Below the pieces are notes generated by a model, which ran no database searches, was not told the DNA's origin, and saw only the letters and a program-made list of their open reading frames with translations. A DNA stretch of 64,000 nt, from NCBI GenBank assembly GCA_026023565.1, contig JAPETS010000023.1, positions 310,001-374,000 on the forward strand. The letters are read 5' to 3'. This document shows, piece by piece, positions 17,028 to 64,000 of this stretch. The DNA is from Cirrosporium novae-zelandiae. Lineage: Eukaryota. Each line of letters starts with the position of its first letter. The first letter of the stretch is position 1. The position numbers and the translations under genes were made by a program.

Positions 17028-19121
17028 ATGGAACGTCGTCACATCCAAGATTTTTCTGAAGGCACTAACACAACATGGTACTTTGGTTATGGAAAACGCC
17101 AAGTTCCCTGCGAGCAGGACGAAAAAACTTGTGAATATCTGGATGGAATATATTGGATGCATGTGCAGTCCATGATTTATAGGTCGGTGTCTTGCACCGA
17201 TGTTTGTATCAGACCGATTACTGATAAGATAAAAAGCTACATCTTATGGTGTGTAATTGGTGGAATACTTCTTTGCTTTCTTCTTTGGAGACTCGTGCAA
17301 AAGATGCTATCTTCAGACCCAGTCAAGAAATCAGATTGTCCTGAAAGCCAATCATCTCGTCCACGGGGTGCTGCCTATAGAGGTTGGAGAGCTATTATAG
17401 CAGCAAAGAATCACTACTTGCTCCCTGAAACCAACATTCTTCTTTTCCGACATGTTACCAGGCTACAAGTCATGATCCTAGCCGTAGGACTCTTGTATCT
17501 TATTATCTTCTCGTAAGTTTAGTCTCCTAGGTCCTTCACGGCCCTTGGCAACTGCTCCCTAACACCAACGAGCCTCATTGGTATAGTTTATAAAACCTGG
17601 GTCACGCCTGTAGAGCATCACTCTAATCTACATAACACCCGTACCGGCCTAGGCGGTTGGTCCGACCGTATTGGCGTCCTAGCCTATGCTCTGACTCCCC
17701 TTAGCATCGGGCTCGCCACACGTGAAAGCATTCCCTCTCTTCTCACTGGAATCCCATATCAAAACTTCATGTTCCTGCACCGCTGGACGGGCCGTGTAAT
17801 ATTTGCCCAGTCCTTCCTACATACGCTGGGCTGGACAGTAATCGAAGGACGCCTCTACCAGCCACAACCGTCTTACTTCACATCTGCCATCGCACAAAAA
17901 TACATGATCTTCGGCATCGTCGCAATGACATTCCTCACCTTCTTATATGTTTTCTCCACCGGTTGGGCTATCTGCCTTACAGGGTACGAATTCTTTGTGA
18001 AATCTCACTACGTCGTGGCCTGGCTATTTGTTGGCTGCTGCTGGGGCCATTGGACCTTGTTGAAATGCTGGATGATCCCATCTCTTATCCTCCTAGCTCT
18101 CGATCTTGTCTGCCAGTACATCCGCGTTCTGCTTATCCACTTGAAATTCAAACGCGACCCCTTTTCTGGCTCCGGTAAAGGCGTAGGATTCCAATGTGCG
18201 AGGGCAGCCATCCAATCATTCGTTGATAGCGACGGAGTTACTGTCGTAACATTGAAGTTTAAGCACCATCATGGTGGGTGGAAATTAGGCCAACATTTCT
18301 ACCTCTGTTTTCCAGAACTCTCAATTTGGCAGAGTCATCCATTCACACCTTCGTTGCCTCCGATCCCAGGGTCGGCAGAGCAGGAACACTTATTCATCGT
18401 GCGGTGTTTGGGAGGCGAATCTGCGCGTTTAGGGAAACTAGCGACTTCCCAGTCCTCTTCTCCCGCTTCGTCCGGAATCGAAATCTGCTTTGAAAACAAC
18501 ATCAATAAAGAGGCTAAAGAACTCTCCACTTCAGAAACTCTCCCTTCACCTATAACCACGATCAAAACAACCCCGGTAATCCTCATCGGTCCCTACGGGA
18601 TCTCCTCCCTCCCCCCCCCATCCCTCCTATCGCCAAACCTCTTAACCATAGCCGGCGGAACCGGAATATCATTCACCCTCCCCTTCATCCTCTCAACCCT
18701 CCAAATTCAAGCTCAAACCCCTCAACCCCCTCTCGGTCTTATATGGATAATCCGCCGTCTCTCGAACATCTCCTGGATAACCCCCTCACTCATATCCATC
18801 CTCCCTCACCTCGCATCAACTCAAACCTGCCCTCTCTACTTCCGTATAATCGTAACCCGAGATCTTCCATCTTCACCCTCGCTCTCCTATATCCCCGAGC
18901 CCCTAACTCAATATATCACCTACACTCACAATCAGCACCCCAGCATTTTGTTCCTCCTGGATGAATTCTCCGCTCTGATAACAAGCAATTCGATATCGAC
19001 ACAGGTGCTAGGGAGTGGACCTGTGGGAATGGCTAGTGATGTGCGGGATGCGGTTGCACGGAGGAATAATGCGAGAAAGGGGGACTGTTGGGGTTGTTAT
19101 TGGGATGGGAGGGAGTTTTAA
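17028..19121 (+). CDS. Ferric/cupric reductase-like transmembrane metalloreductase, 3 exons
   Basis: Heme-ligand His pairs (HRWTGRVIFAQSFLH; H...WGH), FAD motif WQSHPFT, NADPH motifs GPYG and IAGGTGISF, GPVGM; introns ~17183-17237 and ~17513-17572. Confidence 0.88.
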
Positions 19122-41131: not shown

Positions 41132-43042
41132 TTAAATTCTCCTAAACGCGAGCATGAACAAGAGGTTTCTTGCACCATCTGACAGCTCTTCGAGAATTCT
41201 ATCATGTGTGGCTAACACGGCTTTACCGTATCGCCATATACTATTACTTTTCCAGTCCAGTGTATTGCTCCTGGCACGAATGCTGTCGAGATAATCTTTG
41301 GGGGTGCATCCCGAAAGGGACATGAATCCCTGAGCCTGAGTTAAGTAGAGTGGAGATCCACCAAGTTCCTTCGAAATCTCGCTAGCAATACTCCAGGTCG
41401 GATCGTCGACGTCAAGTTGGGATATGTGCATTTGTTGGAGAAGCAATTTGGATCCTGCCTGATCGTCGAGAGGCGCTAGGTCCAGTTCGTGATTAGCCCA
41501 AGGAGCAATCTTTTGAGCAGTGACTATGATAGCACTTGAATTGCGTGATCTTGTTGGCCAGTAACGGGCAATGCTCTTCCATTCAACAACATTATCAAAT
41601 ACTATCAACCAACGTCGCTCTGCAAAGTCAGCCGCTGATTTTGAATGGATATGGGGACGGTGCTATACCCTCGGTCTGAAGCCAGTCAAGTACAATCTCT
41701 ACCTGCGATTCCTGGATAACATCCGAATCGAACAGGCCCAATCGCCTACCAATATTACTGAAGGTCCTGAGGGTTTCGGTCTCCTGTTCGGGATCGGCGC
41801 TCACCCAGAATACAGCATCAAACTTTTCCCTATATGTGTACGTAAACTTAAGAGCCGTCGAGGTCTTTCCAATCCCACCGATACCATGTATAGTACAGGA
41901 GACTGGTCTAGGTTCAGTGTGCGACTCCACCAATAACCTGTATAGCGTATCAAGTTCGTCCTCCCGCCCAGTGAAGTCAGGGTTCTCTGCAATGTTGACA
42001 GAATGAATAGGAAATTTTGGGTCTTGAGGAGTATTTGACTTTTGGGAAACATGTGACTGATGAGCAAGGAGCAACAGCTGACTTTGGCTGTTCAACATTG
42101 TATCATCTGCTTGTCTGGCTCGAGCGCGTTCAGCGCTCTCCACAGCACGGTCAAATTCAGCCACATCATTCTTAAGTTTGTCTTTCAATCTCCTCAGGTT
42201 CTGTCTAAGGGAAGATGACACAATGTTGCGAACGAAAGCCCCTGTATGATATATGATTAGGATATAGCATTGTAACAAAGTTGAGAGGGTAATTAAGCGC
42301 ATACAGAGAGGGTGTTTAGCAAAGTGTCGAATGATTTCCAGGCAAAAGTCGATGTAATCTTCAAAAATACTCTGTAGACTGTACTGTAAAGCCGTACTTC
42401 TGGGATACATGCTCAAATCCTTCTGGAAATAGGGAAGAAGGCTTTGGAGTGCAGCTGCACTGTGAGATGATTTCTTCAATTGATTCGGAAAATATGCAGC
42501 TGCACTGTTTTGTATCTGGTAAGTTTTCGATGGTTTGATCGTTCTTTCTCAGAACTTACTTGGATCACGATGAAAAGAAGCCCTCATATTAGTGAAGAAG
42601 TTAGTTCAATCTGAGTAACAGAAGCGATTCCTTGGCTGAAGGAACGAATGTGATCAAGACTCGGGTATAAGTACTTTGAGATGAATGTCGAGACCTTTCT
42701 TTTCGCAAACTGTTCTGCAAGAGTTTGCATAGCATATTGGAAGGAGTTGAAGTCACTGTGACATATGGCCTCTTCGAGGGTGACGACGTGTATCGAAGAA
42801 GCGTCGCCATACTTTCGTTTTCGTTTCCGCTCCGGCAATTTCAAAAGGGTCGCCAGATCTTCCTTTGTTCTGTCCAAAGTAGCGACCCAGATACGAGACG
42901 ACTCCATCAATTGTGGTTCCTTGGTCTCTAACTCTGTGGCCTGTGGCATCATAACCTGTTGATTCTCAGCCTGTAACTCTATGGTCTGCGTAGCTGTTAT
43001 TACTCCTATCCGAGTTTGCGAGTCTCTACGGCTCAATCTCAA
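41132..43042 (-). pseudogene. NB-ARC (NLR-like STAND NTPase) pseudogene, C-terminally truncated; start uncertain
   Basis: NPDFTGREDEL, Walker A HGIGGIGKT, FDAVFWV, Walker B WLIVFDNV, IIVT, GGSPL (GxP); premature TGA at 42586-42584 in SSLI*GLLFIVIQ; ORF ends at FMLAFRRI* with no intact repeat domain. Confidence 0.85.
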
Positions 43043-43545
43043 TCTAAAGATGATAGCAATGTCACAGCCGAGAATAGCTAGTCGGCCCTGCTCGCCGCCT
43101 TTTAGTATGCTTCATGGGAAAAGGTCGTCCAAGGCGCCGAGGCAAGCATGCGCCCCGTCGCCTGGAAAGTTAGAGGGTTGAAGGAGCAGGTAAGCAGCAG
43201 GCAGAGTTAACATATCTAACCAATGGCCGTAGATTCCAGCCACCATGTTAATGATATACAAGAAAGGGAGAAATGACTTCGCTTGGCATTCGTATAACCT
43301 TTGCGAGTTCCCGCTTTGCGTACCGTCTGTGGAGGGGGAGAAGGGAAAGAGGGCGGCTGAAAGCAGAAAACAGGGGGATTCCATTGGCTCGAAGAAATGT
43401 CCAGCATCCAATCAAAAACAGACGACAGATCACAATCGACTGCATAGAGGCTTGAGTTCACATTCCTTTCGGATATTAATGGGCTGAATTCGAGTGTATC
43501 TAAAGCAGGGTTCGACAATGTACATAAAATATATCATAGTTATTA

Positions 43546-44360
43546 CTTTGGGCGGGTAGAAATGAAAGCGACCAGAGCTAAGCGGCTTTCCCCACCAATT
43601 TTAACCCGTTTGCTGGTTACTGTACGTTAAAAAACATCCCTAAACAACTATAAAAAATTATAATAATTTAGAAAATTCATATATTATATATATATAACTA
43701 CTATGAAAGAGTTGGCGTTTTTTCGCTGCCTGAGGTATCAGCCCTACGGTCTAGGGGTTTATCTTCTAGTGTCAAAGCTTTGATTTCTAATGCCTAAGGC
43801 TTCAGGCTCAGCCTATCCTTTTCAGGCTAGTCTGACCCTTGCAGGCTTATATATAGATTTCCTAGGTTTCTAGAACCGAAGGCAGAACAACTACAGAATA
43901 AAGCACCGAAGAATTCACCCAGATTAATCCGCAGACAATATAAACACTTCGTCCAATTCAATAATTTCTAGTTCCCCTGCCTAAAGCTCTTCAACCCTAG
44001 TTTCTATCCCCAACTGCCTATATAAACGCCCAACCATGAAACTCTTTTACACTACCAATAATAAAAAAATTTAATTTTTTAAAATTATAAAGATCTGCGT
44101 GCAATTGAAGCTACTTTAGATTTTCAACCGACGATAAATCGAAAATATCTAAAAATGCTGGTAGAAAAACCTAAAAGAGCTTTATTTTTTCATTTTTACC
44201 AGTTATATATATATATATATAATATCTAAATTTTCTAAAATATTATAACTTTTTATAGTTGTTTAGGGATGTTTTTTAACGTACAGTAACCAGCAAACGG
44301 GTTAAAATTGGTGGGGAAAGCCGCTTAGCTCTGGTCGCTTTCATTTCTACCCGCCCAAAG
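43546..44360. mobile_element. Non-autonomous TIR element (MITE-like), 815 bp, ~150-bp TIRs, TA target duplication
   Basis: CTTTGGGCGGGTAGAAATGAAAGCGACC... at 43546 is the reverse complement of ...GGTCGCTTTCATTTCTACCCGCCCAAAG ending 44360 (first ~110 bp identical); TA at 43544-45 and 44361-62. Confidence 0.92.
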
Positions 44361-45481
44361 TATAATATTAGAAGCATGGAATGGGTGTTAGTATAGAACA
44401 GGGTGTGTTTGGTGTTAGTGCCACTCAAAAACGCCTGAGGGTGGTTCGCATGTTTGAATGTGCATTCACGATAATTATTAGCAAATTGTCAAGGTTGGGG
44501 CTCTGATAGTGTAGGTAGCGATGCGGATAGGTAGTGTGTCCATATCGTAGTAATATTGAAATAATAGTATTCCTATATAATACAAGACTGAAAGCTGGCC
44601 TTTCCCAGTTTTCTTTCTATTTTTTTATATAAATTTTTCTGTTTGACGTTTTTTCGGTAATCTATCGGCGCCACGTAACGCTATTTCCCCGTTTTTATCC
44701 CGTTTTTAGTCCCTAAACGTAACGATTTTTTCTAATATTTTTTTTTTTTTTTTTTTTATAATATAATTTTTTTTATACGATTATTTTTAATCGTTATTTT
44801 TAATTTTTTAGCGTTAGTTCTTCGTTCCGTTAAATATAATTTTTTTTTTAAATCTAATAATATTATAATATACGTAAATTTCGTTTTTTATTCGTTATCG
44901 TTTTTTATCCGACGAAATTATTATTTTTTTTATTTTTTATTTTTTTTTTTTTTAATAGAAATTTTTTTTATTATCGTTTTATTTCGTTTTTTTAATATTT
45001 TTATTATTTATTTATTACGTTAATATTATTATTTTTATTTTTATTAATTATTTTATTTTTTTAAAATTATTATTTTTATTTTTTATTCGGATTAACGTTT
45101 TTTTTTGAATATAAATAATTATTATTTTTTTTATTTTATTTTTTTTTTATTTTATTTTTTTTTTATTTTTTTTTTTTTTTTTATTCTGATATTTCGTTTA
45201 AATTATCTATTTACGCAGACCGATATTATCGTTTTTATCCGTCCCAATAATATTAATACCGTTTTTCGTAAAGAATTTTTGGTTTTAATCCGTCGTTTCT
45301 ATCGTCGGATTATAATTATCCGTCGATTAAAATATATTATATTATTTAATTCCTACGCCCGTATTAATTAATTATTATTTAAAATTAATTAATTTATTCG
45401 ATAATTAAATTAAATATTTATAATTATTATATATATTTTTTTTATTTCCGTATATTTTTTTTTAATTAATTTTAAATAATA

Positions 45482-46325
45482 GAGAGGTCGGACGGGTCTA
45501 TGGACAGCCCTAGCTCTTGGACGCTCGTTTCCGTAAACCCCACCAAAAATGACATTATTTGAAATATTAATAATAAATTCAGTTTTAAGTAATTTTGATT
45601 AATTATTTTTTATATATTTTAATTTTTAATAGAAATGGTTATATATTAAGTTTTTAGTCTAAAAATACTATTCTATTGGTCAAATAAAACAAATACAATT
45701 AAATATAAATAGTTGCCATATAAATTATTAGTAAAATCAAAATATTAATATAATAAAATAATTTTTGCTATTTTTAATATTTTTAAAAAAATCTTTCACT
45801 TTTATAATCCATATATAATAGAAATTCTGGATTTTAATTTATTATTAATAAAAATTATTTTTGGTTTAGTTATTTAAGAATTTGTATTTTACCATACAAA
45901 ATTTTTATTAGAAAAAATTCAAATCTTTAATAACTATTTTTTTATTGAATATTTTGATTCGTAATTAAGAATATAAATTCTTTATAATATACTAATTATA
46001 AATGTGAAAACCTTTTTTTAAAATATTCAAAATAGCAAAAGTTATTATAACTATATCAAAAACTCGATTTTTACTAGTAATTTGTATGGCTACTACTTAC
46101 ACTACATAGAACTATATATTTATACCACCAATAAAATAAGATTTTTAAACTAAAGACTTAATATATGACCATTTCTATTAAAAATTAAAATATATAAAAA
46201 ATAATTAATTAAAATTACCTAAAACTGAATTTATTATTAATATTTCAAATAATATCATTTTTGGTGGGGTTTACGGAAACGAGCGTCCAAGAGCTAGGGC
46301 AGTCCATAGACCCGTCCGACCTCTC
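45482..46325. mobile_element. Foldback/MITE-like TIR element, 844 bp, TA target duplication
   Basis: GAGAGGTCGGACGGGTCTATGGAC... at 45482 mirrors ...GTCCATAGACCCGTCCGACCTCTC ending 46325; TA on both sides; inverted similarity continues inward. Confidence 0.92.
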
Positions 46326-47021
46326 TATAACGTAAATATCAATAATAATAAAAAAAATAATAATAACGATAATATAAATTATTTTTTTTATAATTTTTTT
46401 TTAACGATATTTCTACGGATATTAATATTAATATTAATTCGATTTCTAAAAATAATAAAAATTCTGGCGTTATTAAAAATATGATCAATATTTAAATTTT
46501 TATATAATTATTAATATTCGAGCGTTCTTTATTATAAATTATATACGTTTAAAATACGTTTTTTTTTTCGGTAAATATTCCGTAATTTTTAAAATCGTTA
46601 ATAAAATTTTTTTTTTTTTTTATTATTATTTTTTTAATTTTTTTTTATTTCGTTTTATTTTTTTTTAATAATATTTTCGTTTCTTTTTTTTTTTTTTTAT
46701 TTTTTATTATTTTTTTTTTTTTTTTTTAAAATATTTTTATATTTTTTTAATAATTCGCTAGATTTTCGATATTTTTTTATTAATTTTCCGCGTATAATTA
46801 ATTTTTTTATTTTATTAAATATTCGTTTTTTTTTTTTTTTTTTATATTCCAATATTTTTTCTATTATATATTCTAGTGTTTTTATTAATAATATTAATTC
46901 TAGAGATTTATAATCCGGATTTTTTTTATAAAATTCTAATAATAATACGTAGAATATCGGATATAATTTTTAATATTACTAGGATAATCGTAATTAATAC
47001 GCGTTTTATTCGTATATAATT

Positions 47022-47583
47022 GGAAAAACAGGGGGGCCAGTGGCCCAGTATAGCCGAAAGGGAAAAACTAGCATTCGTATTAGGGGACCGAAGGTTCTCT
47101 AAAGATTGGGTGCGTTTTTTGGGCAATACGGAGGTGGGGAAGCCCCAGTCCTGGGCCAGACACGAAACGGAAAATCGTGAGGCGTACCTGGATTGGGGGT
47201 GGGTAGAACCCGGACACGGGGGGGATGAGGACCCGGACGAAATAGGTGTTGGGTAAGAGCGGGGTCCGTAGTAGATACGCGGGGTGAGCGCATGCGAGAG
47301 CAAGGACTGAAAAAAAAATCGAAAATAGGTGCGAGTGGGCCTATTTATAGGCTACGAACACCGAAATAGCTCTAAAAGACTATCCGGTTAGATAAGTCAG
47401 GTGATTCTAGGAAACCCAAAGAGGGGGGGAAGCTATATAGCCGAACCAGGGGGGTGACCCCCACCACCTTAGCTAAAAGTAAGCCCGAAAGGGGATACGA
47501 AAGGGTCTAAAAACCCCCGAGTAGAGTCCGTCATAGCTTCTAAGCGGTATATGGACATAAAACAATGAATAATCATCATCATC
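47022..47583 (+). mobile_element. 5'-truncated LINE (Tad-like) 3' end with (CAT)n tail and 14-bp TSD, inserted in the Gypsy integrase C-terminal region
   Basis: TSD ATTCGTATATAATT at 47008-47021 and 47584-47597; ends AACAATGAATAATCATCATCATC; encodes ORF2 C-terminus (...FLGNTEVG...*, stop 47256); matches 57415-57970 (-) and 63575-64000 (+). Confidence 0.92.
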
Positions 47584-50249
47584 ATTCGTATATAATTTTT
47601 ACGATAAATAATTCTAGATATTTTACGTCTAATTTTTTATTTATTTATTTTATTTTTATATTTTTTATTATTAATAATATTTAATTTTTTATTTTATATT
47701 ATTTCGATATATAATAACGATCGTAATAAATTTTTTATTTTAAAACCGATTTTTTTTATATTTTTTATATTTTTTTTTATATTTTTTTTATATTTTTTAC
47801 GCGTATTTTTTTAATAAAATTTTCGTTTTTTTCTATTTTTTTTATATTTATTTTTAATTTTAATTTAAACGTATATATTATTTCGAATAATATTTTTTTC
47901 GTTTTTTAATATTTCGTATTATTATATATATATTTTACGTTTATTAATAATATTATTTAATTATTTTAATTATAATTATGATATATTTTTAAATATTTTT
48001 TTAATATTTAATTTTATTTTTCGGTTTAATTATTTGTTTATAAATAATAAACGATATTTAATTTTTTTTATATTATTAAATAATAATAAAATAATTCTTA
48101 ATAAATATTAATAAATAATAATTTTTTATCTAATATTATATTTTTAAATATTTTAAATTTTATTCCGATCGTTTTTTATATTAATTTTATTAAATTTTTT
48201 ATTTTCGTTTTTTTCGTATATAATATATATATAATTAATTTAAAATATTTATTTATTATTATTAAAATTATATTATATATATTATTATTTTATTTATTTA
48301 ATAATAAATTAATAATAAAATTTATTATTATTATTTTTATTAGATTTTAGAAATATTATAATAATATTAAAATTTTATAAAATCAATAATAATATATTTT
48401 TAATCGTTAATATATATTATATCGTTTTATATATTTTTTAATATTTTCGTTTATTTTTATTTATTAATATTTTTTATTTATTATTTTTTTCGTTTTTTTG
48501 TTCCTGAAATATTTTTTAAATTATAGGGAATTATAATTTATTTTTATTATTTTTTTTAACGCGGTATCGTTTAATACGTATACCGCTCTATTTTTCCGTA
48601 ATAAATCCGTATCGTTTTCGTTTTATTTTTTTTTATTTTTTTTTAATATATATTCTATATTAAAAATTTAATGCTTATATTTTCCGTAATAGATTTATTA
48701 ATATTTCTGGTATTTTTTTTTTTAATCTATTTTTTATTATTATTATTCTATATATTTTTCGTAATAATAAATAATTATATACGTATTATACGTTTTCCGT
48801 AATATATTCTAAAAAATTATTTATTTTATTATTTTTTTCTATTATTTTTAAAAATTTTTTTAATATTGAAAGGGTTTTTCCGGTAAATAATCCGTATTTT
48901 ATATAATTTAACGCCGTTATCGTAATTATTAATTAATTAAATATTTTAATTTTTTTTTTATATTATTTAAATTTATTTTATAACGTAAATAATAATTTAT
49001 TTCTCGTTTTTTTATTCCCGTTTTTTTTTATATAATTTAGTTTTTTTAATAATATATTTTATTGGATTAATTTTCCCTGTTCTATATATTATTTCGAAAT
49101 TATATTCCGTTAATTTTTTTATTTAATATATTTATTATTTATTTAATATTATTATTTTTATAAATAATTATAAATTTCTATAATTTATTAATATTTATAT
49201 TATATATTTATTTTTTTATAAATAATAATTTTATTTTTTAAATTTTTTTATAATTATAAATAATTCAAAATCGTATATTAAATATTTTTATTTTAATTTT
49301 ATTAATTTTTTTGATTAAAATATAATTAGATATTATATTTTATTTTATAATTATTTTATATATTCGTCGTTTAATTATAATAGAATTCCCGTAATTTTTT
49401 TTTATAATATATCCGTTTTTATTTTTATTATTTTCGTTAGATTAAAATAATATAATATAAATATTATCGTAAATATTTTTTTAAATATTTTAAATATTAT
49501 TTACGCGATTTCGGGTTATATAAATTTTTTTATTTTTTTATTATTTTTTATTTTTTTTAATAAATTTATAATAAAATTTATTATTTTTAAATAATTTTTT
49601 ATAAATTTTTTATAAAAATTAATAAATTTAATAAAAATTTAAATATCGTAATAATTTTTTAATTTCGATTATTTTAGAATTATTTTTATTTTTTTTTATA
49701 CGGATTTTTTACGTTCTGATTACGAAATTTAAAAATATTATTTTTAATTTATTAAATATATATTTTAATAATTTTATATATAATTTATATTTATATAATC
49801 GTTCTAATATTATTTATACGTATATCGTATATTCCGCGATATTAAATAAATAAATTAAAATATCGTTAAAATATATTATATAAATTATATTTAAAAAATC
49901 GGATAATATTTCGTTAATATATATTTAGAATATAATTAAAATATTTATTAATTCGAATAATATTATTATATATTCGAAATATCCGTATCGGATACGAAAA
50001 ATAATTTTTTATTCGTTTTTTTTTTATTCGGATTCGATAATAAATATTTTTTAAATTAAATTTTATAAAAATTTTCGTTTATTTTAATTTATTTAATATT
50101 TTTTTATTTTATTTTTATTAATTTTATTAATAATTTTTCGTTTTTTTTTATTTTTTATTATTTAACGAATTATTATAATATATAATTTTTTTCCATTTTT
50201 AAATTAATTAATATTTTCGTTTTTTTTTTTTTAATAATATTTATATTTT

Positions 50250-50360
50250 TATTTTAATTATTATTTTTTTATTTGTAAATATTTCGGTGATTATAAAAAT
50301 CTTATTTTAATTATTATTTTTTTATTTGTAAATATTTCGGTGATTATAAAAATCTTATTT
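50250..50360. repeat. 53-bp direct tandem duplication
   Basis: TATTTTAATTATTATTTTTTTATTTGTAAATATTTCGGTGATTATAAAAATCT occurs at 50250 and 50303. Confidence 0.85.
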
Positions 50361-51099
50361 TTTAAAATTATTTAATAAAATTATTTAATAAATTTATTAA
50401 ATTTTTTTAGATTATTTATTTTTTTTTTTATATTTTTTTTTGGTATTTAATATTATTTTAATAAATATCCCAGTTTTTTATAATTTTAATAAATAAACGT
50501 ATTTTTTCCGGTTTTCGGTTCTATAAAGGTTTTTTTTATAATTATTACCGTCGTTATTTATTTTTTTTATTATTTTTCGTTATTCTGTTTCGTTATTATT
50601 TCGTTATTTTTTTTTATTCCGATAATTATCCGTATTTTTTTTTCCGATATGAATCTATGTGTTTGTGAATTAACTTTCGAAAATAGATGGTTGTGCCGCT
50701 GTTTTTTAAAACTTTCCCATATATACAAATACCTTTTTAACTTAATTTATCGCCGTTTTAATTTTTTAATATATCTCTAATAACTTTTTTATATCGTATA
50801 TTTGAAACGGAATATTTTTACGAAAAAATAGATCTTTTATTTTTCAATTTTAATTCTATTAATTTACCAACCACGTTTTATATTATTTTTTATTTTGGTT
50901 ATAATATTTTTTCGTATTAATTTTTTAATATTAAATTCTTTATTTTTTTTTAATAATAATAAAATTTTATTTTTTTATTTTATATTTTATTTGGTAAATT
51001 CGAATATATTTTTCGTCGATTTATATTTCCGGAGTATTTCTAATATTTATTTATTATTTTCCGTATTTTTATTTTATAAAAATATATTTGTTTGATTTT

Positions 51100-53500
51100 T
51101 TATAGTTATATTAATTTCGTATATATTTAGCAATTAATATTGGACCGATCTTATATTCCGTAAAAAAATATATTCGATACTAAAGAAATTCAAATAAAAA
51201 AAATAATTATTTCCAATTTATAAAGAATTTATTATCAAAAATATTAAAATTATAGAAAAATATTAATAAAAATAAATAAAACTATTTAATTTTTAATTTT
51301 TAATATATATTTAATATTATTTATTAAATATTACAATTATTTACAGATAAATAATATCGAATATTTAATAAAAAAAAAACGATTATTTATATAAATTTCC
51401 TGGACTAAATAACTCGTATATCGAAATAGAAAAAAAAAAAAACGTTTAATATATATTAAAAACGATTATATAAATATTATTTTTTTTTATTTATCGTCGG
51501 ATATATAAAAATATCCGTATATAAATAAAACGGGTTTGTCGTTCTTTATTTTAATTTTTATTTCTGATCGAATTTTTTTATTGAACAGTTCTGGCAGTAT
51601 ATTAATCAAAATTTACGAGTTGAATATTATATAAACGTCCGTAAAAAACGGAAAAATATTTTGAATTCTGAAAATCTCGATATTCTTTTATATCAATTTT
51701 GGATATATAAAAAATCTATCCCAAATAAACGATATTTAATTCAAATTATTTTAATTATATTTTTTTCCGCGTTTACAGGAACACGGCCGGATATATTATT
51801 TTTTTTTACGGAATCTATACCAAGAATATTTTTAAATAGTCGCATATTTAATTTTATTCGGCTGGACCAATTGTTTCGTACGATTTATTACCGGGATATC
51901 GAATTTTTTATTATTTAAAATCCGTTTAGGGGTCGTGATATTGTCGCTGTATTAATTAATTTCAGAAATCTAAAAAATTTAGAATAAAATATAAATAGAT
52001 TAATTTTGTTTTTTTTTTAAAATTTTTACGCTAAATTCTATATTTATATTCCGAATATTTAAAACCAAATTTTTAATATATTAAGATTATCAGCTAATAT
52101 ATTATTTTATTATATTTTTTTTTTCGTTTATATATACCGATTATATATTTCAAAATTACCGTATAATACCAGAAATAATACTACGATTAAAAATTCCGAA
52201 ACGGTTATATTTTTTGTTTATTCCGTAGAAAAACGAAATACGGAATATTTTTTTTTTGCGATATATCGATAAAACGTTTTATAATATTGATATCCATCCA
52301 ATTTAATTAATAAAATATAATATTAATAATTCAGCAATCAAATAATTAGAGATCGATATTAATTATAAATATTTTATTTATTACTATAATTTTCGGCGTT
52401 AAATAACGAATAAAATTAATCGTAAATTATTTTATTATTATATAATTTTTATTTATTATATTATATAATTTGGTATTAATTTCTATTATAACGTAGGGGC
52501 TTTCACGGACCAAAAACGAAATCGAATTTTAGGTCAATCGGGAACTAAGATTTTCGAAAAATATTACCAGGATTATTTTATCAGCCGTAATATATAAAAT
52601 ATTATTTTTTTACGGTTTATCTAAAATTCCTTATACCGGGCTGTCGCCCAGATAAATAAAAATCGAGATCCGTTAATACCAAAAAATTTTTCGGAAAAAC
52701 AGCGCAAAACTATTATATAAAAATTTTATTTCGCCCAATTTTATAAAAAAAAACAGAAACTTTTTAAAAAAATAAAATTAATACGGAATTTCGTACGGAA
52801 TATAACGGATACTAACCAATACCGTCGTTATACTAAAATAAATAAAAAAATTAAAAAAATAAAAAATATATATTACCGAAAAAAAAAACCAAAATAAAAA
52901 AAAATTATTATTAAATTATACCGGTTATTAAAATTAATAAATAAATTAATTAAATATTTGAATTAATTTCTAATAAAAATATTTTAGATTATAAAAATAA
53001 TTTATAGAAATCTCCGGTTTTTTAATACTTATTTCCCGAATAAACTCAAATTGCAGACGCTTTTTTTAGATTTTAGACCGAATCTATAATTAATAACCAG
53101 ATTTTAATATAAAAAATTAAAACTATTTAAAATCTAATCCGTTTTTATTAACTGCGAGAATTTTATAATCGAATTAAAAAATTCGATTAAATTAATATCG
53201 ACGAAAATACGAGTAATAAAACGCCAAATTCTAATATTTTCGAAATTTTTATAAATCGATATATTTTCTATTATAACGAAAAAAATCTCGGTAATTTATA
53301 TTCCCCTAAAAAATAACGTATAAATTCACTGAAATATTATTTGGTGAATCTATATTTTTAGCTTTTTTTTTATAAAAACTGTATTATATATCTCTGTTTT
53401 TATTATAAACAGCTCGAATTTTTTAAAAATATCGTTGTTTTTTTTAATTATATCGCAATTATATATAAATATGATTTATATTTATAAATTCGTCGCTTAT
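51100..53500 (+). pseudogene. RIP-degraded DUF3435-like tyrosine recombinase (Starship captain)
   Basis: Ordered motifs: FLD*..K..TFNIY*KRL; LLYQFW..KRYLIQI..SAFTGTRP (51661-51790); IYYRDIEFF..NPFRGRDIV; P*KNEI..FLR; YNFRR (~52390); KRNRILGQSGTKIFEKYYQ (~52510-52570); RDPLIPKNFSEKQ; C-terminal CxxC..H..H remnant. Confidence 0.8.
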
Positions 53501-56500
53501 TTTTTTTTTTAATTAAAATATTAATACAAAATCGATTAACAATTTAAAAAAAAAAAATATTATAAATAATAATATTATTAATAATATTATAATTATAATT
53601 AAAATTTATAAATTTTTTTTTTTTTATTATTCTATCTATATTTTATTTTTATAGAAATAATATAGATTTATCAAAATCTTAGGATTTTTTTTATTTTAAT
53701 CTAGCTGTATAAAACTAATTAAATTTATTTAATATATATTTAATAACTAAAAATAATCAATTACGTAAATTAATTATTTTTATATTTTTTATTTAAATAA
53801 TATAATGGCTGAAGCGGTCCTGAAAAAATAAACCTAACGTTCGTAAATATTATAAAATATATTACAATTAATAAAATATTAAATAACGTCCTATATTTTA
53901 ATTTATTATCTATTATTGTTTTTATAAAAAATATCTCTCGTATTTACTATTAAATATTAAAAATCTTTTATAGATTTTGGTTTTTATATTATTATTAGAG
54001 TTTAGGGTATTTTTTATAATCAAAAAAATAATAATCGAAAAAAATATTATCTAGGAATATTCCAGAAAATTTTTTTAGATTTACGTGGCCGTGTAGCCGT
54101 TTTTTTATATTTTAGATCAATAGATTATAAAAAAATAATTATATATTAATATAAAAAAGAATAAAAATAAATTCAATATTTAATTACTATTAAATATAAA
54201 ATAATTTTTATATAATCGAAAATTTACCTATTTTTTTTGACAAATATTATTATAAAATAGATATAATCGGATAATAAATAAACTAATTAATCGTTTTTAT
54301 TTTATTTTTTTTTTCGTATTTTTTTATTCTAAATCTAGTTAGCGTAGAATTCGATTATCGATATAAAACGGTTTAAATAAAAAATTTTTTTCTCCCGTAA
54401 TTTAATTAGGATAAAATCCGATAATCTAATATTTTATTATAATTATAATAATTATATTAAAATATTTCTGGATTATAACGCTAATAATATTTTTTTATAT
54501 CGAAAATAATTTATAGAATATTAAACCGATACTAATATTTATTAAATTATTTATTATACGATTCGGCCAAATAATTAATTAATAAAAAAAAAATTTTTAA
54601 TATTATAGATTTAATATTTATTTTAAAATAATTTAATAATTTGATAAATTTTTTTATACGGAATAAAAAAATGAATTAAAATATATTATCTGGATAAAAT
54701 CTCAAAATCTAATAATTCTATTTTTAAATATATTTGAGATAAATTATTTATTCAATTTAATTAATACGATAATCTCTATTAAAGATTTATTTATATATAT
54801 AATTTATTTTAATATTATAAAAATATTCTTTTTATTACCAGAATAAATTTAGAATAAATATAAAAAACAATCTATTTTTTTTATTATATATAATTTTATA
54901 AATTTTTAAATTCTTCCAGTTTTTGTAATTATTGGAAATTTGAATAAAAAAACGATATTTTTTAAAAATACTAAAAATATCTAAATTTTTTATCAAATTA
55001 TTTTAAATACTATTTTTTTTTCGATATAAAATTTATTTTTAAAAAATCTATAACCCTGTTTATCAGAGGTATAAATAATCAAAAAAACGATATTTAAATT
55101 ATAAAAAACGAATAAAAATAGATAAAAATCTAGTAATAAAAAAAAATTATTTATTTATTAAAATATTCTTATATTAGTAGTAAACTAAAAATTAATATAA
55201 AATTAATTTATATACGATTTAGTTTTGTAGAATATTTATAAAATAGTTGTAACCCGGTCAATATATATATATTGAATATATATTATAATTATATTACGAT
55301 ACTAATATTATTTTTTTATAGATTTTGTGAATTTATTCAATAAATAATTCTAAAATCTTTTAATTAATAATTTTAATAATAATATTATACGGTATTATTT
55401 ATAATTTCTGGATTTGGTTATTTTATAGAACCAAAAAAGAGTTTTCAGAAATTATATTATTATTTCGAAAATTATTTTTTTTTTGTTAAATAATCCTAAA
55501 TATAATAATAATTACAGGAATTATAAATTTATTATTTTTAATTATATTCGCTCCAGTTTTTAAATAAAATATTAAATTATTATCGGATATTGCGACGTCA
55601 TTAATTATATATAAAATAGATTTATTTAGGCCGATTCTCTATTTTAATTTTGGTTATTTATTGATAATACTATTTCTATATAAAATAAAATCGTAAATAT
55701 TATTATTTAATAATTTATATTAATTATTATTAATATTTTATATTTTAGAATTAAATTTTTCGTCTAATAATTATAGCTATTATATTTTTTTCTAAATTTA
55801 AAATAATTTTATTATCGTTATAAATATTATTTTATATTTATAGAATATTTATTTATATTAATAGGTTTTTTGATAATTATCTTTTTTATTTAACGTATTA
55901 TTTTATTAATTCCGGGTTATTTACCGTAAATATTATTCAAAAATCTATTTGGTCTAAAATATATTATTATTTTTGGGTGATTTCGATCTATATCCGATAA
56001 AAAATCCAGATATTTCACGAATTTTATTATAAAATCATATCTCCCCGTCTAATTGATTTTATATTTTATTTAAAAAATTTTATTTTCCAGTCCAGGGTAC
56101 CGCAGTTTTAATATTAGCGGATATTATAAATAATTACAATTATAACAGCGTTCCTGTTTTTTATTGGTTTAATAATTGTTATTTTAAATTTTTTTTTCGA
56201 TTTTTTATAAATATATCTAGTAACGGTATAATTTTTTTATTTTATTTATATAATCGATTAATTAATTTAATAATTTTAAATTACCGTTTTTATTATAATT
56301 AAATCCTTATATTATTAATATATTTGTAATTAAACGTAAAATATACCGGAAAAAACTCTGGAATTGGTGTAAATAAAATAAAAAAATATATTAATATTTC
56401 TATTTTTATATATTAGATTTTTGTAAGAATTATTTATTAATTTTAAAGATTTTTTTAATATTTTTAATTATTTTAATTATTACTATTAAATATTAATTAT

Positions 56501-57414
56501 TAACGATTAAATTTTAAATTATTTAATTTTAGTTCTAACAATTTTTTTAAATTATATATAAGTTTTTATTATAATTCCTAAAAATAATTTTATATAAATT
56601 ATATAATTTATCGTCTAAAATCTAACGTACAAAATTCAGGGATCTATATATAGTGTTATATAATTAGATTATATAATATCACGTGTATATAATTTAATAT
56701 CCGTAACAGTCTTATATAAAAAAATATTATTATTAAAATATATTTAAAAGATTAAGAATTTAATTCACCGGCCGGGATTCTAGAATTATTAATTAATAGA
56801 ATTAAAATTAATTAGAAATTAATTATTTTACTATTAAATAATTAAAATAAAAATTGATATTAAATTTAAAATTTATTATTTAATTTTAGTTTTATAATTT
56901 TTTTAATTTAATATTAAATTAATAATATTAATTATTCTAAATCTAATAATCCTAATTATTAGAATTATAAAATCAAAATTATAATTAATTAATATTTAAA
57001 ATTTAATTATAAACGTTTAACGTTTAATTATAAACGTTCAACGTTTAAGCGTAAACGATTATTTTTTAATAATAATCAGAGAAATAAAAAAATTAATAAT
57101 TTTAAAATACGATTCTTATATTAATTAAAAAAATTTTCAAATATTTTTTTATTATTTTATATAATTATATATAAATAATATTAGTAATTTTACGATTTTA
57201 CTTTTTTATTATTTACTATTTAGTACCGTTCGGTCCCGTATATCTAAATACGTTATTTTTTTTATTACCAATAGTTTTTTTACTAAAAATATTCGCGTTC
57301 GTATTACGGTCTGCAGTATATTATTTACGTTATCCGATCTTAATTTTAAACTATTACTGAATACAATATAATTATTAATAAATATATAATAATATTCTAA
57401 AATATTCTATATTA

Positions 57415-60400
57415 ATGATGATGATTATTCATTGTTTTATGTCTATATACCGTTTAGAAACTATGACGGACTCTATTCAGGGGTTTTTAGACTTTTTCGT
57501 ATCCTTTTTCGGGCTTATTTTTAGCTAAAATGGTGGGGGTTACACCCCTAATTCGGCTAAATAGTTTCCCCCCTTTTTTGGGTTTCCTAGAATCACCTGA
57601 TTTATTTAACCGGATAATTTTTTAGCGTTATTTCGGTGTTCGTAATCTATAAATAGGTTTATTCGTATCTATTTTCGATTTTTTCAATTTTTGTTTACGT
57701 ATACGTTTATCTCGCGTATCTATTACGGGCCCAGTTTTTATTTAATATCTACGTCTGGGTTTTTTTCTTCCCCGTATCCGGGTTTTATCTATCCCTAATC
57801 TAGGTATATCTCATGATTTTCCGTTTCGTATCTGGCCTAAGATTAGGGTTTTTTTATTTCCGTATTATTTAAAAAACGTATCTAATTTTTAAAGAATTTT
57901 CGGTTTTTTAATACGAATATTAGTTTTTTTTTTTCGGCTATATTAGGCTATTAATCCCTCCGTTTTTCTATTGTTTTCCGTAAACGGGCCTTAATTATTT
58001 TTTAGCGCGGGTATATTAATATTAAATAAAATATATTTTAATATAAAACCCTGTATTATTAATATTCTGGGATAATAATAATTTTCGTACGATATATATA
58101 TTCCTTAATAGCGGCGTACCCCGTTTTTATTTAATAGAATTTATTTATCAATTTTTTAAACGTATATTTTAATACCCGATTTTTTTTATATTTTAAATAT
58201 ATTCGATAAAATTTATCGGACGATTTTTTTATTTTTTAATTACGTAATTAATTATACGTTTTTATAATTTATTTTTCCGTTATATTACGGGTTATATAAA
58301 TTAACGAAATTTATTCGATTATTTTATTATTTTTTAATATTATATTTATTTTAGCTATTTAATTTATTATTTCGTTTTTTAATATTTTATAATATTTTAA
58401 AATTTATTTAATAGCGATTTTCGTTTTTTAATTTATTAGATATTTAGTATATTCGTATATTTTTTATACGATCGTTTAGTTTTTTTTTAATTTTTTTTTT
58501 CGATTTATTTGATAGCCGTTTGCGAATCAAATAATATTATTATTTTTTTTTTAGGGATTTTATAATTATTTAAATATATTTTAATTATTATTTATAAAAT
58601 TATTTATATTTTCTAAAATTCTATATCGAATATTTTTTATTTTAATTTAAATAATATTTCCGTATTATTTATAAAGTTTTTTCGGTTATTTTCTAAATTA
58701 TTCCCGTTTTTATTTTACGGTTTTTTAATTTAAATCCGTCCGATTAATATACGTTTTTTCAGTCCTATATTAACGTTTCGCTAAAAATCTATTATTTTAG
58801 AAATATTATTATTTTTTTTAAAAATCTATTTTTTTCGGTTATTTAAATTTTTTCGATTTTAAAATTTAAATTTATTATTTTTTAAATTATTATTATAATT
58901 AAATATTAATTTAATATATTTTTTTTAATTTTTTAAATTTATTAAAAATTTTTTAATAATTATTTTTTTAATTAAATATTTACGTTTTTTATTTTGAACG
59001 TTATCGATAATATTAAATTCGTTAAATTTTTTTCGATTTTTTAAAAATATCGAAATCTATATTTTTTTTATACGGTATTTAATATTACGTTTACGGGATA
59101 TATATAGATTTTTTATATAATTATTATTATTAGAATTATTTTATAGATTTCTATTATTAATTTAATAAATTTATTTAATAATTTTTGAAATTTTATTTAA
59201 TAACCGGTTTATTTTTTCTACTAAATTTTATATCCGTATATATAAATTAATATTATAATCGTTACGGTTATTTAACGTATAAATCCTGTAAATAATCCGT
59301 TTCGGTAATATATATATTTAATTACGTTTTCCGTACGTCGGATTTTAATTAATCGCTGGGCGTAATAAATCTAAAAATTAAATTTCGGATTTAATTATAT
59401 ATTTAATTATTATACGTAATTTTTTTTATATTTAATTAAATAATTATCGATTTTAATTTTCGATTTAATATTTATCCAAATTTAGTATTTACGTAATCTA
59501 AAAAAAATTATAATTTTAATTTTTTAAACGTCGAATTCTAATTTATTTTTTTTTTATTAGACCGCCGTTTTTATTATTTGTTGGGTAATTTTCCGGGCTT
59601 ATTTATTATCTATATAGGTGGTCGAAAAACTTACGTCGTCCACGAATAATAAAATTTTGATCCTAAAAACCGCCTGTTTTACGGCTGCGAATAGCCCGCT
59701 GCAATATATTAGGAATAATATTGGGGATACGGGTGACTTTTACGGTACCCCCGTTTCTATATTAATTCGGGGTTATATTTCTCCGTCGATTATTAATTCA
59801 ATATTTCGTTAGATTATAAAATTAGATATTTATTTAATAATATTTTTATTGATTTTTAATTATTTTAAATATTATATTAATTTAAACCGTAATATATAAT
59901 TAAACGTTTTTTTTAGGTTTATAAATAAAATATAAATTATTTATTTTCGATTAAATTTTTTTTTTATTCGATATATTAAATATATAAACGTATAAATCGT
60001 ATTCCGATTATATTTCGATTTAAATTAATTATTATATAATTTATTTAGATTTTCGTATATATTTATTAATACGTTAATTATAATTTTTTCGATTATTTTA
60101 TTTAAATAATATAATAAATTTATTATTTTATAATTTTTAATTAATATTTTATCGGTTTTTCCGGATTTAAATAATAATATTTTTTAAATATATTTTTATT
60201 ACGTCGGGTAATATTTTAATCGGAAATAATATCGGATTATTTCTGTTATTTTATAGAAATCCTATTATTATAATATACGGAACGTTTTAAATTAAATTTT
60301 ATTATATTTTAAAATTTTATTCGTATTTTATATATATAACGTTTTTTGTATTATTTTTTCGGATAATTATTGAACGAATATTTTTTTTATCGGAAACCGA

Positions 60401-61895
60401 AATTCGGGATTTTTTAAAAATAACGGGAAAATTCGTTTTTATATAAAAATTTTTTTATTTTTAATTTTTATCGTTATTTTTCCGTTTTTTATATAGAATA
60501 TTAATATCGCGTTTTAATTTTAAAATTTATAATATTTTAATATTTTTTATTTCCGTTAAATATTTTCGGGATTTAAAAATTTATTTAAATCGTTTTTTTT
60601 TATATATATTTAAAAAAAATTTATTTATTTATTTTTTTTTTTAATTTTAATTAATTTTATAAATTTTTTAAATATTATTTTAATTTTTCCGTAAATTCGG
60701 CGTTTTTATTTCGTTTTTTTAAATATTATATAATATTCGTATTTTTTAATAATATATTTGGGATTTTATTACGTTTTTAATCAAACGTATATTTATTTAG
60801 ATTTTATATATTTATTTAAAATAATTTTTAATTAAATAATAATTTTTTATATTTCGTTTTTTAATTACGTTTCTGTATAATTTACGATTAATATATTTTT
60901 CGTAATTAATTAGAATTCTTATTTTTATTTCGTTTTAATTTATTGTTAAGGATTTTCCAACAATTTTAAATTTTACGAATTCGGGATTAATTAATCTATT
61001 TTTGGGCGGTAATTTTTTTATTCGAATTAAATAAAAACGTGATTTAAATTAATTTTTAATTTATTATTTATATTATCGATTACCGCGTTTATTAATTATT
61101 TTTAAAATAATTTTATAACGGGATTAATTATTATTAAATTAATTATTAAATAACGAGCCGATTTTTTTCCGAATTAAATATTTTAGGCGGTATCGTTTTA
61201 TATAATTAAATTCTATTTTTTTATAAACGTTATTAAAAACGCGTCGTCCACGTAAATAATTTATTCGGGCTTTTATATTAGATTATAAATATTAAAATTT
61301 TTTTAAATTTTTATTATCGGTCTTATTTTTAAAAATATATATTTTTTAATTTTTAATCGTAAATATTAATTATTCTAATCGGGTTTTCTATTTTTTCGTT
61401 TATATTTATTATATTGATATCTAGCGCTATAAAATAAAAATAATCAATTAGATCGGTTTTTACGATTATTCTAAATATATTATTTTTTCGGTTTTTATAT
61501 ATAATAATAACCGTTTTTGCGATTTTATTTCCTATTTAAATTTTTAATTCGGGCCAATAAAATTTTTACGCCGGATATAATATTTTTTTTTTTAATTTTT
61601 AATTAGATTTTTATAATAATATTATATTTATTCCGGTTTATATAATCGATTTTAGAATTATAATCGTTATATCGTATTTTTTATAATAATTATATTATAG
61701 TATTTTTATTTATAATTTGGATATATCGTTATTTATTTACGGTACGGGTATTATTAATATTTTCGGTATTATCGATATTTCGGATATTATTTACGTTTTT
61801 TCCCCCGTTTTTTTTTACAATTCGGGGATTTTTAATTTTTAATTAAAATTCTTTAAATTTTTTTTTTTATTTTTTTTTAAAAAAATTAATACGTA
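57415..61895 (-). mobile_element. RIP-degraded Tad-like LINE (ORF2: APE endonuclease, RT, RNase H, Zn knuckle) with (CAT)n tail; 5' part not in window
   Basis: Tail ATGATGATGATTATTCATTGTT at 57415; minus-strand IETGVP*KSPVSPILFLIY (~59760-59700) and LFVDDVSF (~59645-59625); endonuclease remnants RIINIYD and KNFNIYNLI* (~61390-61270). Confidence 0.88.
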
Positions 61896-61899
61896 AAAC

Positions 61900-64000
61900 A
61901 TCATTCGTGGACGACGTGAGCTTCTCGACCACCCATATAGATAATAAACAAGCCCGGAAAACCACCCAACAAGCAGCGAAGGCGGCGGTTCAATAGGGGA
62001 AAGAAAATAGGCTAGAATTCGACGCCCAAAAAACTGAGATTATAGCGTTTTTTAGGCTACGTAAACACCAAGCTTAGGTGAATACGAAACCGAAAATTAG
62101 GGTCAATAGTCACCCGATCGAATACAAAAAAGATTACGTACGGTAATTAGATATATAGCTAAACCCGAAACTTAATTTCTAAATCTACCACGCCCAGCGC
62201 CTAGCCAAGGCCAGGCGCGCGGAAAACGTAATTAAATATATATACCACCGAAACGGACTACCTACGGGGCTTGCGCGCTAGATAGCCGTAACGACGATAA
62301 TATTAACCTATATATACGGATACGAGATCTGGTGGAACGGGCAGGTCGGGTACCAAACAGAATTTCAAAAATTGCTGAATAGGTTTATAAAATTAATAAC
62401 GGGGGTCTATAAAATAACCCCAATAATAGCGGTTATATAAAAAATCTATATATATTTTATAAACGTAATATTAAATATTACGTAAAAAAAATATAGATTT
62501 CGGTATTTTTAAAAAATCGAAAAAAATTTAACGAATCTAATATTATCGATAACGTTTAAAATAAAAAACGTAAATATTTAATTAAAAAAATAACCGTTGG
62601 AAAATTTCTAATAAATTTAAAAAATTAAAAAAAATATATTAAATTAATATTTAATTATAACGATAATCTAAAAAATAATAAATTTAAATTTTAAAATCAA
62701 AAAAATCTAAATAACCGAAAAAAATAATAATATTTCTAAAATAATAGGTTTTTAGCGAAACGCTAGCGTAGAACTGGAAAAACGTATATTAATCGGACGG
62801 ATCTAAACTAAAAAACCGCAAAATAGGGGCGGGAATAATCTAGAAAATAGCCGAAAAAACCCTATAAACGATACGGAAATACTATCTAAATCAAAATAAA
62901 GAGGTATTCGACGCAGAATTTTGGGGGGCGCAAGCAGCCTTGTAAATAGCGGCTAAGGCGTACCCAAATAATTATAAAACCCCCAGAAAAAAAATAGTAG
63001 TATTATTTAATTCGCAAACGGCTATTAGACGGATCGAAAAAAAAAAATTAAAAAAAAATTAAACGATCGTATAAAAAATATACGAATATACCAAATATTT
63101 GGTCGATTAAAAAAACGAAAATCATTATTAAATAAATCCCGGAATATTACGGAATATTAAAGAACGAAATAATAAATTAAACGGTTAAAATAAATACGGC
63201 GTTAAAAAATAATAAAATGATCGAATAAATTTTGTTAATTTATATAATTTATAATATAACGGAAAAACGGATTATAAAAACGTACAATTAATTATATAAT
63301 TAAAAAATAAAAAAATCGCCCGATAAACCGTATTAAATATACCCGAGATATAAAAAAAATCGGATATTAAAATACGCGTTTAAAAAATTAATAAATAGGT
63401 TTTATTAAATAAAAACGGGGTACGCCGTTATCGGGGAATATATATACCGCACGAAAACCACTATTATCCCGGAATACTGGTGATACGGGATCCCGTATTA
63501 AAACGTTTTTTATTTAATATTAATATATCCGCGCTAGAGAGCGGCTAGGGCCCGATTACGGGAAATAATAAAAAAATAGGGGGGCCAGTAATCTAATATA
63601 ACCGAAAAAAAAAAACTAATATTCGTATTAAAAAACCGAAGATTTTTTAAAAATTAGATACGTTTTTTAGGCGATACGGAAATAAGGAAACCTTAATCCT
63701 AAACCAGACACGAAACGGAAAATCGTGAGGCGTACCTGGATTAGGGGTAGGTAGAACCCGGATATAAAAGGGAAAAGGACCCAAACGTAAATATTAAATA
63801 AAAATTAGGCCCGTAATAGATACGTGGAATAAACGTATATATAAACAAAAATTGAAAAAATCGAAAATAAATACGAATAAACCTATTTATAGATTACGAA
63901 TATCGAAATAACGCTAAAAAATTATCCGATTAAATAAATTAGATAATTCTAAAAAACCCAAAAAAGAGGGGAAACTATATAGCCGAACTAAAAAAATAAC
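61900..64000 (+). mobile_element. 5'-truncated copy of the same LINE (RT C-half, RNase H, Zn knuckle, 3'UTR), runs off the window
   Basis: SFVDDVSF, *GKENRLEFDAQKTE, VR*LDI*LNPKLNF, YGYEIWW, ITGVYKITP; RNase H SDGSK (~62793), EVFDAE (62901), *IPEYYGILKNE; 3'UTR matches 47022-47460. Confidence 0.92.

Follow-up and report, generated by a model that had tools for sequence, protein, structure and literature searches.

Captains of the Starship superfamily carry the DUF3435 domain (PF11917; PMC13465315, PMC10104507). The closest outgroup of these recombinases are the Cryptons, and CryptonF sequences have been used as the outgroup in their phylogeny; between Starship families the median identity of the recombinases is 25.8% (PMC11162782). 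The same source describes a YxxR motif for Starship clades 1 and 3, and describes the Hephaestus family as enriched in Eurotiomycetes only (PMC11162782). Transposition by the Hephaestus captain HhpA of Paecilomyces variotii depends on both Y381 and Y416 (PMC10104507). Degraded Starships, for which the term 'derelict' is in use (PMC11162782), have been reported before: a duplicated Hephaestus was degraded by RIP after a cross (PMC10104507), and a degraded copy of Tangerine is known from Xanthoria calcicola (PMC13486527). Here we describe the fossil of a captain-type gene in Cirrosporium novae-zelandiae, a member of the class Xylobotryomycetes, together with an intact paralog.

The window, by which we mean the whole stretch of 64,000 nucleotides that was analysed, falls into two parts. 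Positions 1-44,400 have a GC content of 41-51% and contain long open frames, whose products include a RecQ-type helicase, FUSC_2, a WD40 protein, a ferric reductase, an MIT-domain protein, an MFS transporter, a Zn2Cys6 factor, ThrE/Prm10 and an AAA_16 protein. A protein listed by NCBI under a Cirrosporium novae-zelandiae MAG shares 99% identity with the product of the ThrE frame. The remainder of the window is AT-rich and holds the fossil (Table 1). RIP is commonly called where TpA/ApT exceeds about 0.89 and (CA+TG)/(AC+GT) falls below about 0.75; from 44 to 64 kb the two indices were 0.94-1.14 and 0.19-0.71, beyond both thresholds, and in the gene-bearing part (1-44 kb) they were 0.60-0.94 and 1.14-1.55.

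Table 1. Features of the AT-rich part of the window and layout of the fossil gene, in window coordinates; P0047 is the intact paralog.
Feature	Position	Strand	Basis and remarks
AT-rich, RIP-affected block holding the fossil	44400..64000	.	GC 10-33%; RIP indices beyond both thresholds; continues past the end of the window
Weak RNase H fossil of an LTR retroelement, upstream neighbour outside the captain gene	49162..49494	-	RT_RNaseH_2, E 1.4e-5, 25.5 bits (cutoff 29.8)
Full-length DUF3435 tyrosine-recombinase (captain-type) gene fossil	51102..53562	+	tblastn and spliced/frameshift alignment to P0047; PF11917 81.3 bits
Coding block 1, P0047 residues 1-54	51102..51263	+	alignment to P0047
Intron-sized gap, 56 nt, without counterpart in the P0047 protein; probable intron	51264..51319	+	borders uncertain after RIP
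Coding block 2, P0047 residues 55-122	51320..51521	+	two 1-nt deletions in homopolymer runs, ~51380 and ~51481
Intron-sized gap, 73 nt	51522..51594	+	3' end CAG adjoins the next codon block
Coding block 3, P0047 residues 123-256; FTGTRP box	51595..51996	+	alignment to P0047; Arg-I CGG at 51784-51786, candidate Lys AAA at 51973-51975
Intron-sized gap, 64 nt	51997..52060	+	alignment to P0047
Coding block 4, P0047 residues 257-377; YxxR box	52061..52423	+	alignment to P0047; Tyr TAT at 52385-52387, Arg CGG at 52394-52396
Intron-sized gap, 75 nt	52424..52498	+	alignment to P0047
Coding block 5, P0047 residues 378-732; box II LGQSGTKIFEKYY, RDP motif, long helical tail	52499..53562	+	alignment to P0047; Gln CAA at 52535-52537 (active site 5), candidate nucleophile Tyr TAC at 52565-52567; single 1-nt deletion at ~52889
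Remnant of C-terminal Cys/His (zinc-finger-like) region	53260..53466	+	alignment to P0047
Repeated downstream element, non-LTR retrotransposon remnant by eye, F[VL]DD-type motif	57413..59651	.	purine/pyrimidine-coded self-comparison

We scanned the stretch around the fossil against Pfam with stop codons translated as X. In the plus frame that starts at 50501, PF11917 was matched over profile positions 212-342 of 418 with 81.3 bits (E 9e-23), far above the gathering cutoff of 25.8 bits for this family. A second plus frame (from 50500) matched profile positions 16-80 (E 4e-4, 19.8 bits), which is below the cutoff when taken alone. The N-terminal and C-terminal parts of the domain are collinear in two plus frames; on the minus strand here, none of the three frames gave a Pfam match. 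A first-pass annotation, made from the sequence alone, had placed a DUF3435 captain-type fossil at 51100-53500 and had proposed a PF11917 search with a de-RIPped sequence. The search succeeded on the undoctored reading, and the alignment to the paralog shifted the limits of the fossil slightly. A phmmer search with the translation of 52298-53002 against 1.84 billion representative sequences returned 45 matches with E<=1e-3, 11 of which had E<=1e-10. Chance similarity as the source of the DUF3435 signal is ruled out by these E-values.

A three-frame translation of 51,000-53,700 contains FTGTRPDIL at ~51770-51795, YYYNFRR at ~52380-52400, RILGQSGTKIFEKYYQDY at ~52520-52580 and NRDPLIP at ~52640, plus a C-terminal stretch derived from Cys and His codons. 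The motif order that the first-pass annotation had read through the stops (TGT-R-P, Y-N-F-R-R, LG-Q..IFEKY-Y, RDPxxP and a C-terminal remnant) is borne out, each motif at its place. Little of this is visible as open reading frame. With ATG, GTG or TTG as start, the only ORF of at least 60 amino acids at the fossil is a TTG ORF of 85 amino acids (51661-51918), the one that had been named as the sole survivor; there is no ATG ORF of at least 50 amino acids at the locus, and the longest stop-to-stop frame of the fossil is 116 amino acids. ORF-based gene calling would miss the gene, as had been anticipated of gene prediction.

The intact paralog, P0047 (M1834_008511), has 732 amino acids and is encoded on another contig (104,663 bp) whose source organism is named Cirrosporium novae-zelandiae. 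It was found among 46 PF11917 proteins, was reached via a full-length match (P0016), and is assigned PF11917 in the precomputed Pfam listing. In a tblastn search of the window, P0047 matched four pieces that together span 51102-53562, with 48-55% identity. A protein-to-DNA alignment that allowed frameshifts and intron-sized gaps placed 729 of the 732 residues, both ends included (1-732); 407 of the 729 aligned residues are identical and 322 differ. The reading frame of the fossil (GC 19%) is broken by 31 in-frame stops and three 1-nt deletions, and the alignment opens four intron-sized gaps in it. The four gaps (56, 73, 64, and 75 nt) are probably introns of the fossil gene. The three deletions all lie in homopolymer runs and are either genuine or artefacts of assembly. 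No second copy of the fossil was found in the 64-kb window: blastn returned short AT-rich low-complexity matches, and in the tblastn search with P0047 all other matches had E>1.

The differences between the fossil and P0047 run almost entirely in one direction. Judged codon by codon from the P0047 protein, rather than from a DNA alignment of the two loci, changes of the type C>T/G>A alone explain 315 of the 322 residue differences. The reverse changes (T>C/A>G) alone explain one, C>A/G>T alone 19, and C>G/G>C alone two. When residues were shuffled among the mismatch columns, C>T/G>A explained 19.6% +/- 2.3 of the differences, with a maximum of 26.9%. Since only seven differences lie beyond the reach of C>T/G>A, the copy was, before RIP, identical to P0047 at all but about 7 of the 729 residues. 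The 31 stops fall on P0047 codons for Gln (20), Trp (7) and Arg (4), and the fossil reads Tyr (TAT) at all of C632, C635, C675, C680, H695, and H700 of P0047. C>T/G>A transitions account for each of these features, turning Gln, Trp, and Arg codons into the 31 stops and Cys and His codons into Tyr, and lowering the GC content to 19%. The counts support inactivation by RIP, as previously proposed for this locus. We consider 51102-53562 to be, very probably, a 'derelict' copy of a captain gene of the Starship superfamily (DUF3435) that was once near-identical to P0047 in protein sequence and was killed by RIP.

For RIP to have been triggered, the gene, and probably its flanks as well, would have been present in at least two copies within one nucleus. 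Because RIP normally strikes both copies, the intact twin calls for an extra assumption: it may have arrived after the fossil had diverged past RIP recognition, or it may belong to another genotype in the assembly. One could instead suppose that a single-copy gene was hit only by RIP leaking from neighbouring repeated retroelements, since repeated elements do lie 1.6 kb to one side of the fossil and 3.9 kb to the other. However, leakage is milder than RIP proper and decays with distance, whereas mutation here is near saturation throughout 2.46 kb (GC 19%, 31 stops), and the near-identical paralog documents a duplicate substrate for RIP. We regard leakage as very unlikely to be the cause. That saturation also points to repeated, mobile DNA, which bears on a different proposal, namely that the gene comes from a Crypton-type or other non-Starship tyrosine-recombinase transposon, or is a decayed host gene of the 'FluG domain-containing' kind. 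The outgroup position of the Cryptons (PMC11162782) speaks in its favour, as does the fact that many relatives are named 'FluG domain-containing protein' by their sources. But all listed relatives carry PF11917, the captain domain of the Starship literature; the 40-45% identity to Eurotiales proteins exceeds the between-family median and lies inside the within-family range (PMC11162782); and the relatives are 700-900 amino acids long and have the Cys/His tail in common. CryptonF elements are likewise eukaryotic tyrosine-recombinase DNA transposons of fungi; the relatives found here are all PF11917 proteins of captain length. On these grounds we regard an origin outside the Starships as very unlikely.

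A further question is whether a whole element ever stood at this place. A complete Starship would have the captain as first gene at the 5' end of a large element with direct repeats or TIRs at its borders, cargo or accessory genes further downstream, and an empty site in another genome. Within the window we found no element borders, direct repeats, TIRs or cargo; RIP has blurred short repeats. The Hephaestus family is recognised by a TTAC(N7)A target and a TTAC direct repeat, a motif that C>T changes would alter. Rfam and tRNA scans of the window found no 5S or tRNA gene as a target site. The recombinase gene may have been duplicated with only short flanks, as a solo captain, with no cargo-carrying Starship ever present and with the surrounding AT-rich DNA being unrelated retroelement debris. 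For many captains no element could be identified, and these may be 'solo' (PMC11162782); retroelement remnants lie on both sides of the fossil (RNase H at 49.2-49.5 kb, repeats at 47.0-47.6, 57.4-59.7, and 61.9-64.0 kb). In a code of purines and pyrimidines, 57539-59651 recurs in inverted orientation at 61899-64000, and 47021-47584 is repeated at 57413-57970 and 63569-64000, each with 97.7-98.3% identity; to the eye, these repeats are remnants of non-LTR retroelements.

A Pfam scan, of low sensitivity here, also found no cargo-type domain in the DNA downstream of the gene. Read through in six frames, 53.5-64 kb gave no match with E<=0.01; with the threshold relaxed to E<=1, 53.6-57.5 kb gave only a chance-level match to PspB. 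Upstream, 44.0-50.6 kb gave only the weak RNase H match, below its cutoff. The scan is a weak test for cargo because it was blind to the retroelement remnant at 61.9-64 kb that is visible by eye, and this insensitivity counts against reading too much into the missing domains. Against a solo captain also stands the 3.9-kb stretch from the end of the gene to the first repeat (53.6-57.4 kb). With a GC content of 13-16% it is as AT-rich as the fossil, and it has no match elsewhere in the window, which fits its duplication together with the gene; this RIPped, domain-free stretch may be what remains of the element body. We consider a solo captain a genuine possibility, though short of probable.

To characterize the protein, we aligned P0047 with 37 relatives (38 sequences in all) and modelled the intact twin with AlphaFold2. 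R186, K249, Y365, R368, and G389 are near-invariant in the alignment, as is a C-terminal set of Cys and His residues (C632, C675, C680, H695, and H700). The candidate active-site residues follow one another in P0047 as R186, K249, Y365-x-x-R368, Q390, and Y400, and all six codons are intact in the fossil; their catalytic roles were assigned from motif order, spacing and alignment ranges, not from a residue-level structural alignment. The model (pLDDT 68, with low confidence at 387-406, around Q390 and Y400) has the core-binding and catalytic domain fold of the tyrosine recombinase superfamily. In a Foldseek search, the top 14 rows were all Cre (E 4.9e-5 to 2.7e-4), and further matches were to XerA, XerH, and the integron and lambda integrases. 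VIA-align matched the model to Cre with a Z score of 12.7 over 270 residues, at an rmsd of 12.3 that is this high because the domain orientation differs. Matches confined to the catalytic domain had rmsd values of 3.1-3.6 (3nkh_B, Z 12.0, rmsd 3.1, 169 residues aligned; 1ae9_B, Z 10.2, rmsd 3.3). Besides Cre, Xer, and lambda Int, the structural matches include Tn1549 Int.

P0047 has in common with Cre, Xer, and lambda Int the two-domain fold and the active-site order R, K, (H/Y)xxR, site 5, Y. It differs from them in having Tyr for the first His and Gln for the second His/Trp, in a long additional C-terminal helix and a Cys/His tail, and in showing no detectable sequence similarity. A profile of the 38-sequence alignment had no significant match among PDB sequences (best E 1.4), and the similarity of the Cys/His tail to C2H2-type PDB chains was weak and not significant (E 2.7). 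Going by the model, the living protein would have been a Cre-like tyrosine recombinase, with core-binding and catalytic domains at about 40-400 and Y400 as the nucleophile, and would have excised and integrated its own element.

The residue at active site 5 deserves separate treatment. In Table S5 of PMC11162782 this site (XerD H270, Cre W315) precedes the nucleophile by ten alignment columns. The distance from Q390 to Y400 in P0047 is likewise ten residues, and the VIA ranges pair residue 389 of the model with Cre 314; because spacing and ranges agree, we place Q390 at site 5. The position thus holds neither the His of XerD nor the Trp of Cre but Gln, encoded by CAA in the fossil and found as LGQSG in P0047. 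Among 97 sequences, 78 matched the motif, and the residue was Q in 60, H in 15, and Y in one. The other two were mis-hits of the pattern to an upstream RELG motif. Since P0047 and 60 of the 78 relatives have Gln, it is an ancestral trait of the clade and not damage. The first-pass annotation was right that RIP did not create this residue; its suggestion of a distinct captain clade did not hold, as judged by the same 60 of 78 relatives. By sequence comparison, Gln marks a large existing clade that is mainly Eurotiales and Hephaestus-like. The word glutamine is absent from the main text of PMC11162782.

Among the 49 relatives of P0047 with E<=1e-20, all of which carry PF11917, no other comes from its own organism, and the nearest outside its own genome is 45% identical. 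Most of the relatives are Eurotiales proteins with 40-45% identity to P0047. The Hephaestus family is described as enriched only in Eurotiomycetes, whereas the host here belongs to the Xylobotryomycetes. P0047 resembles captains of the HhpA type in the DUF3435 domain, in having YxxR for HxxR, and in the spacing of its two tyrosines: Y365 and Y400 are 35 residues apart, exactly as Y381 and Y416 are in HhpA. Seven full-length Eurotiales relatives have Tyr at exactly 381 and 416, which suggests, by the published residue numbering, that they are HhpA-like. Among known captains, the fossil and P0047 appear closest to those of the Hephaestus type in Eurotiales, a membership we infer from identity and residue numbering.

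RIP-degraded Starships are already described, and this fossil leaves the current picture of Starships unchanged. As in the published cases, a component was killed by C>T/G>A in a large RIP-affected region that carries nested LTR and LINE elements (PMC10104507, PMC13486527). Unlike in those cases, the captain itself is preserved over its whole length, and each of its codons can be checked against an intact twin. Our search of the literature found no report of a Starship in Xylobotryomycetes, and none of the Cirrosporium literature, judged by titles, concerns Starships. Tentatively, one may see here a Hephaestus-like Starship lineage in Xylobotryomycetes caught mid-cycle, with a RIP-saturated copy and an intact twin (7 of 729 residues beyond RIP) in one genome, although we think this rather unlikely. 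If true, it would imply re-invasion, by outcrossing or horizontal transfer, after the death of the first copy; the element would either be active to this day or have lost its activity only recently, and the pair would be a datable contest between Starship and RIP. Joined to this reading is the speculative idea, which we hold no more firmly, that Gln at site 5 is a working catalytic variant common to the clade of the validated HhpA.

Translation across the stop codons retrieves an entire captain gene that is invisible to ORF-based annotation, and the number of Starship recombinases counted in RIP-proficient fungi is therefore probably an underestimate. With its intact twin, the fossil offers a clean natural comparison from which the effect of RIP on a Starship gene can be measured, and the pair makes one ask how a saturated copy and an intact one can exist together. 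It also extends the Hephaestus-like captains to a fungal class that is small and has been little studied.

When transitions, the changes typical of RIP, were ignored by coding the sequence as purines and pyrimidines, the AT-rich block was found to contain one repeated element, present within the window in three copies that are 97.7-98.3% identical. Translations of this element include, as judged by eye, an F[VL]DD stretch resembling that of non-LTR reverse transcriptases; a Pfam search with the copies returned no match. The end that the copies share has a somewhat higher GC content (26-33%).

Upstream of the captain fossil, the RIP-degraded DUF3435 tyrosine-recombinase gene, lies a weak trace of the RNase H domain from an LTR retroelement. 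Because the gag-RT portion of a complete element would overlap the captain fossil, this one must be either truncated or interrupted around 49.5-51.1 kb. Exactly where the gene-bearing region meets the AT-rich block, the arms of an inverted repeat enclose approximately 500 bp. The arms may represent the termini of a small TIR element; alternatively, they may form a hairpin.

Features of the window (RY, compared in purine/pyrimidine code)
Feature	Position	Strand or orientation	Remarks
RecQ-type helicase frame	225-2060	-	Helicase_C, DEAD, RecQ_Zn_bind; start of window
WD40-repeat protein frame	14400-16142	+	
Ferric reductase frame	17523-19121	+	
AAA_16 frame	41628-42548	-	NLR-like NTPase
153-bp inverted repeat	43544-43696 and 44210-44362	inverted	RY, 98.7% identity
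Repeat set	47021-47584 vs 57413-57970; vs 63569-64000	inverted; direct	RY
RNase H remnant	49162-49494	-	weak, 25.5 bits, below cutoff
Repeat pair	57539-59651 vs 61899-64000	inverted	RY

Starship accessory genes frequently include ferric reductases and NLR-like genes. The WD40, ferric reductase, and AAA_16 frames are all located in the intact region, 5' of the captain and outside its expected cargo zone.

Two related DUF3435 proteins encoded outside the window, P0016 and P0046 (source name Vezdaea aestivalis MAG), are 69% identical to one another. Both retain His (LGHGGS) at active site 5, the second-His position of tyrosine recombinases, whereas the clade to which the captain fossil belongs has Gln.
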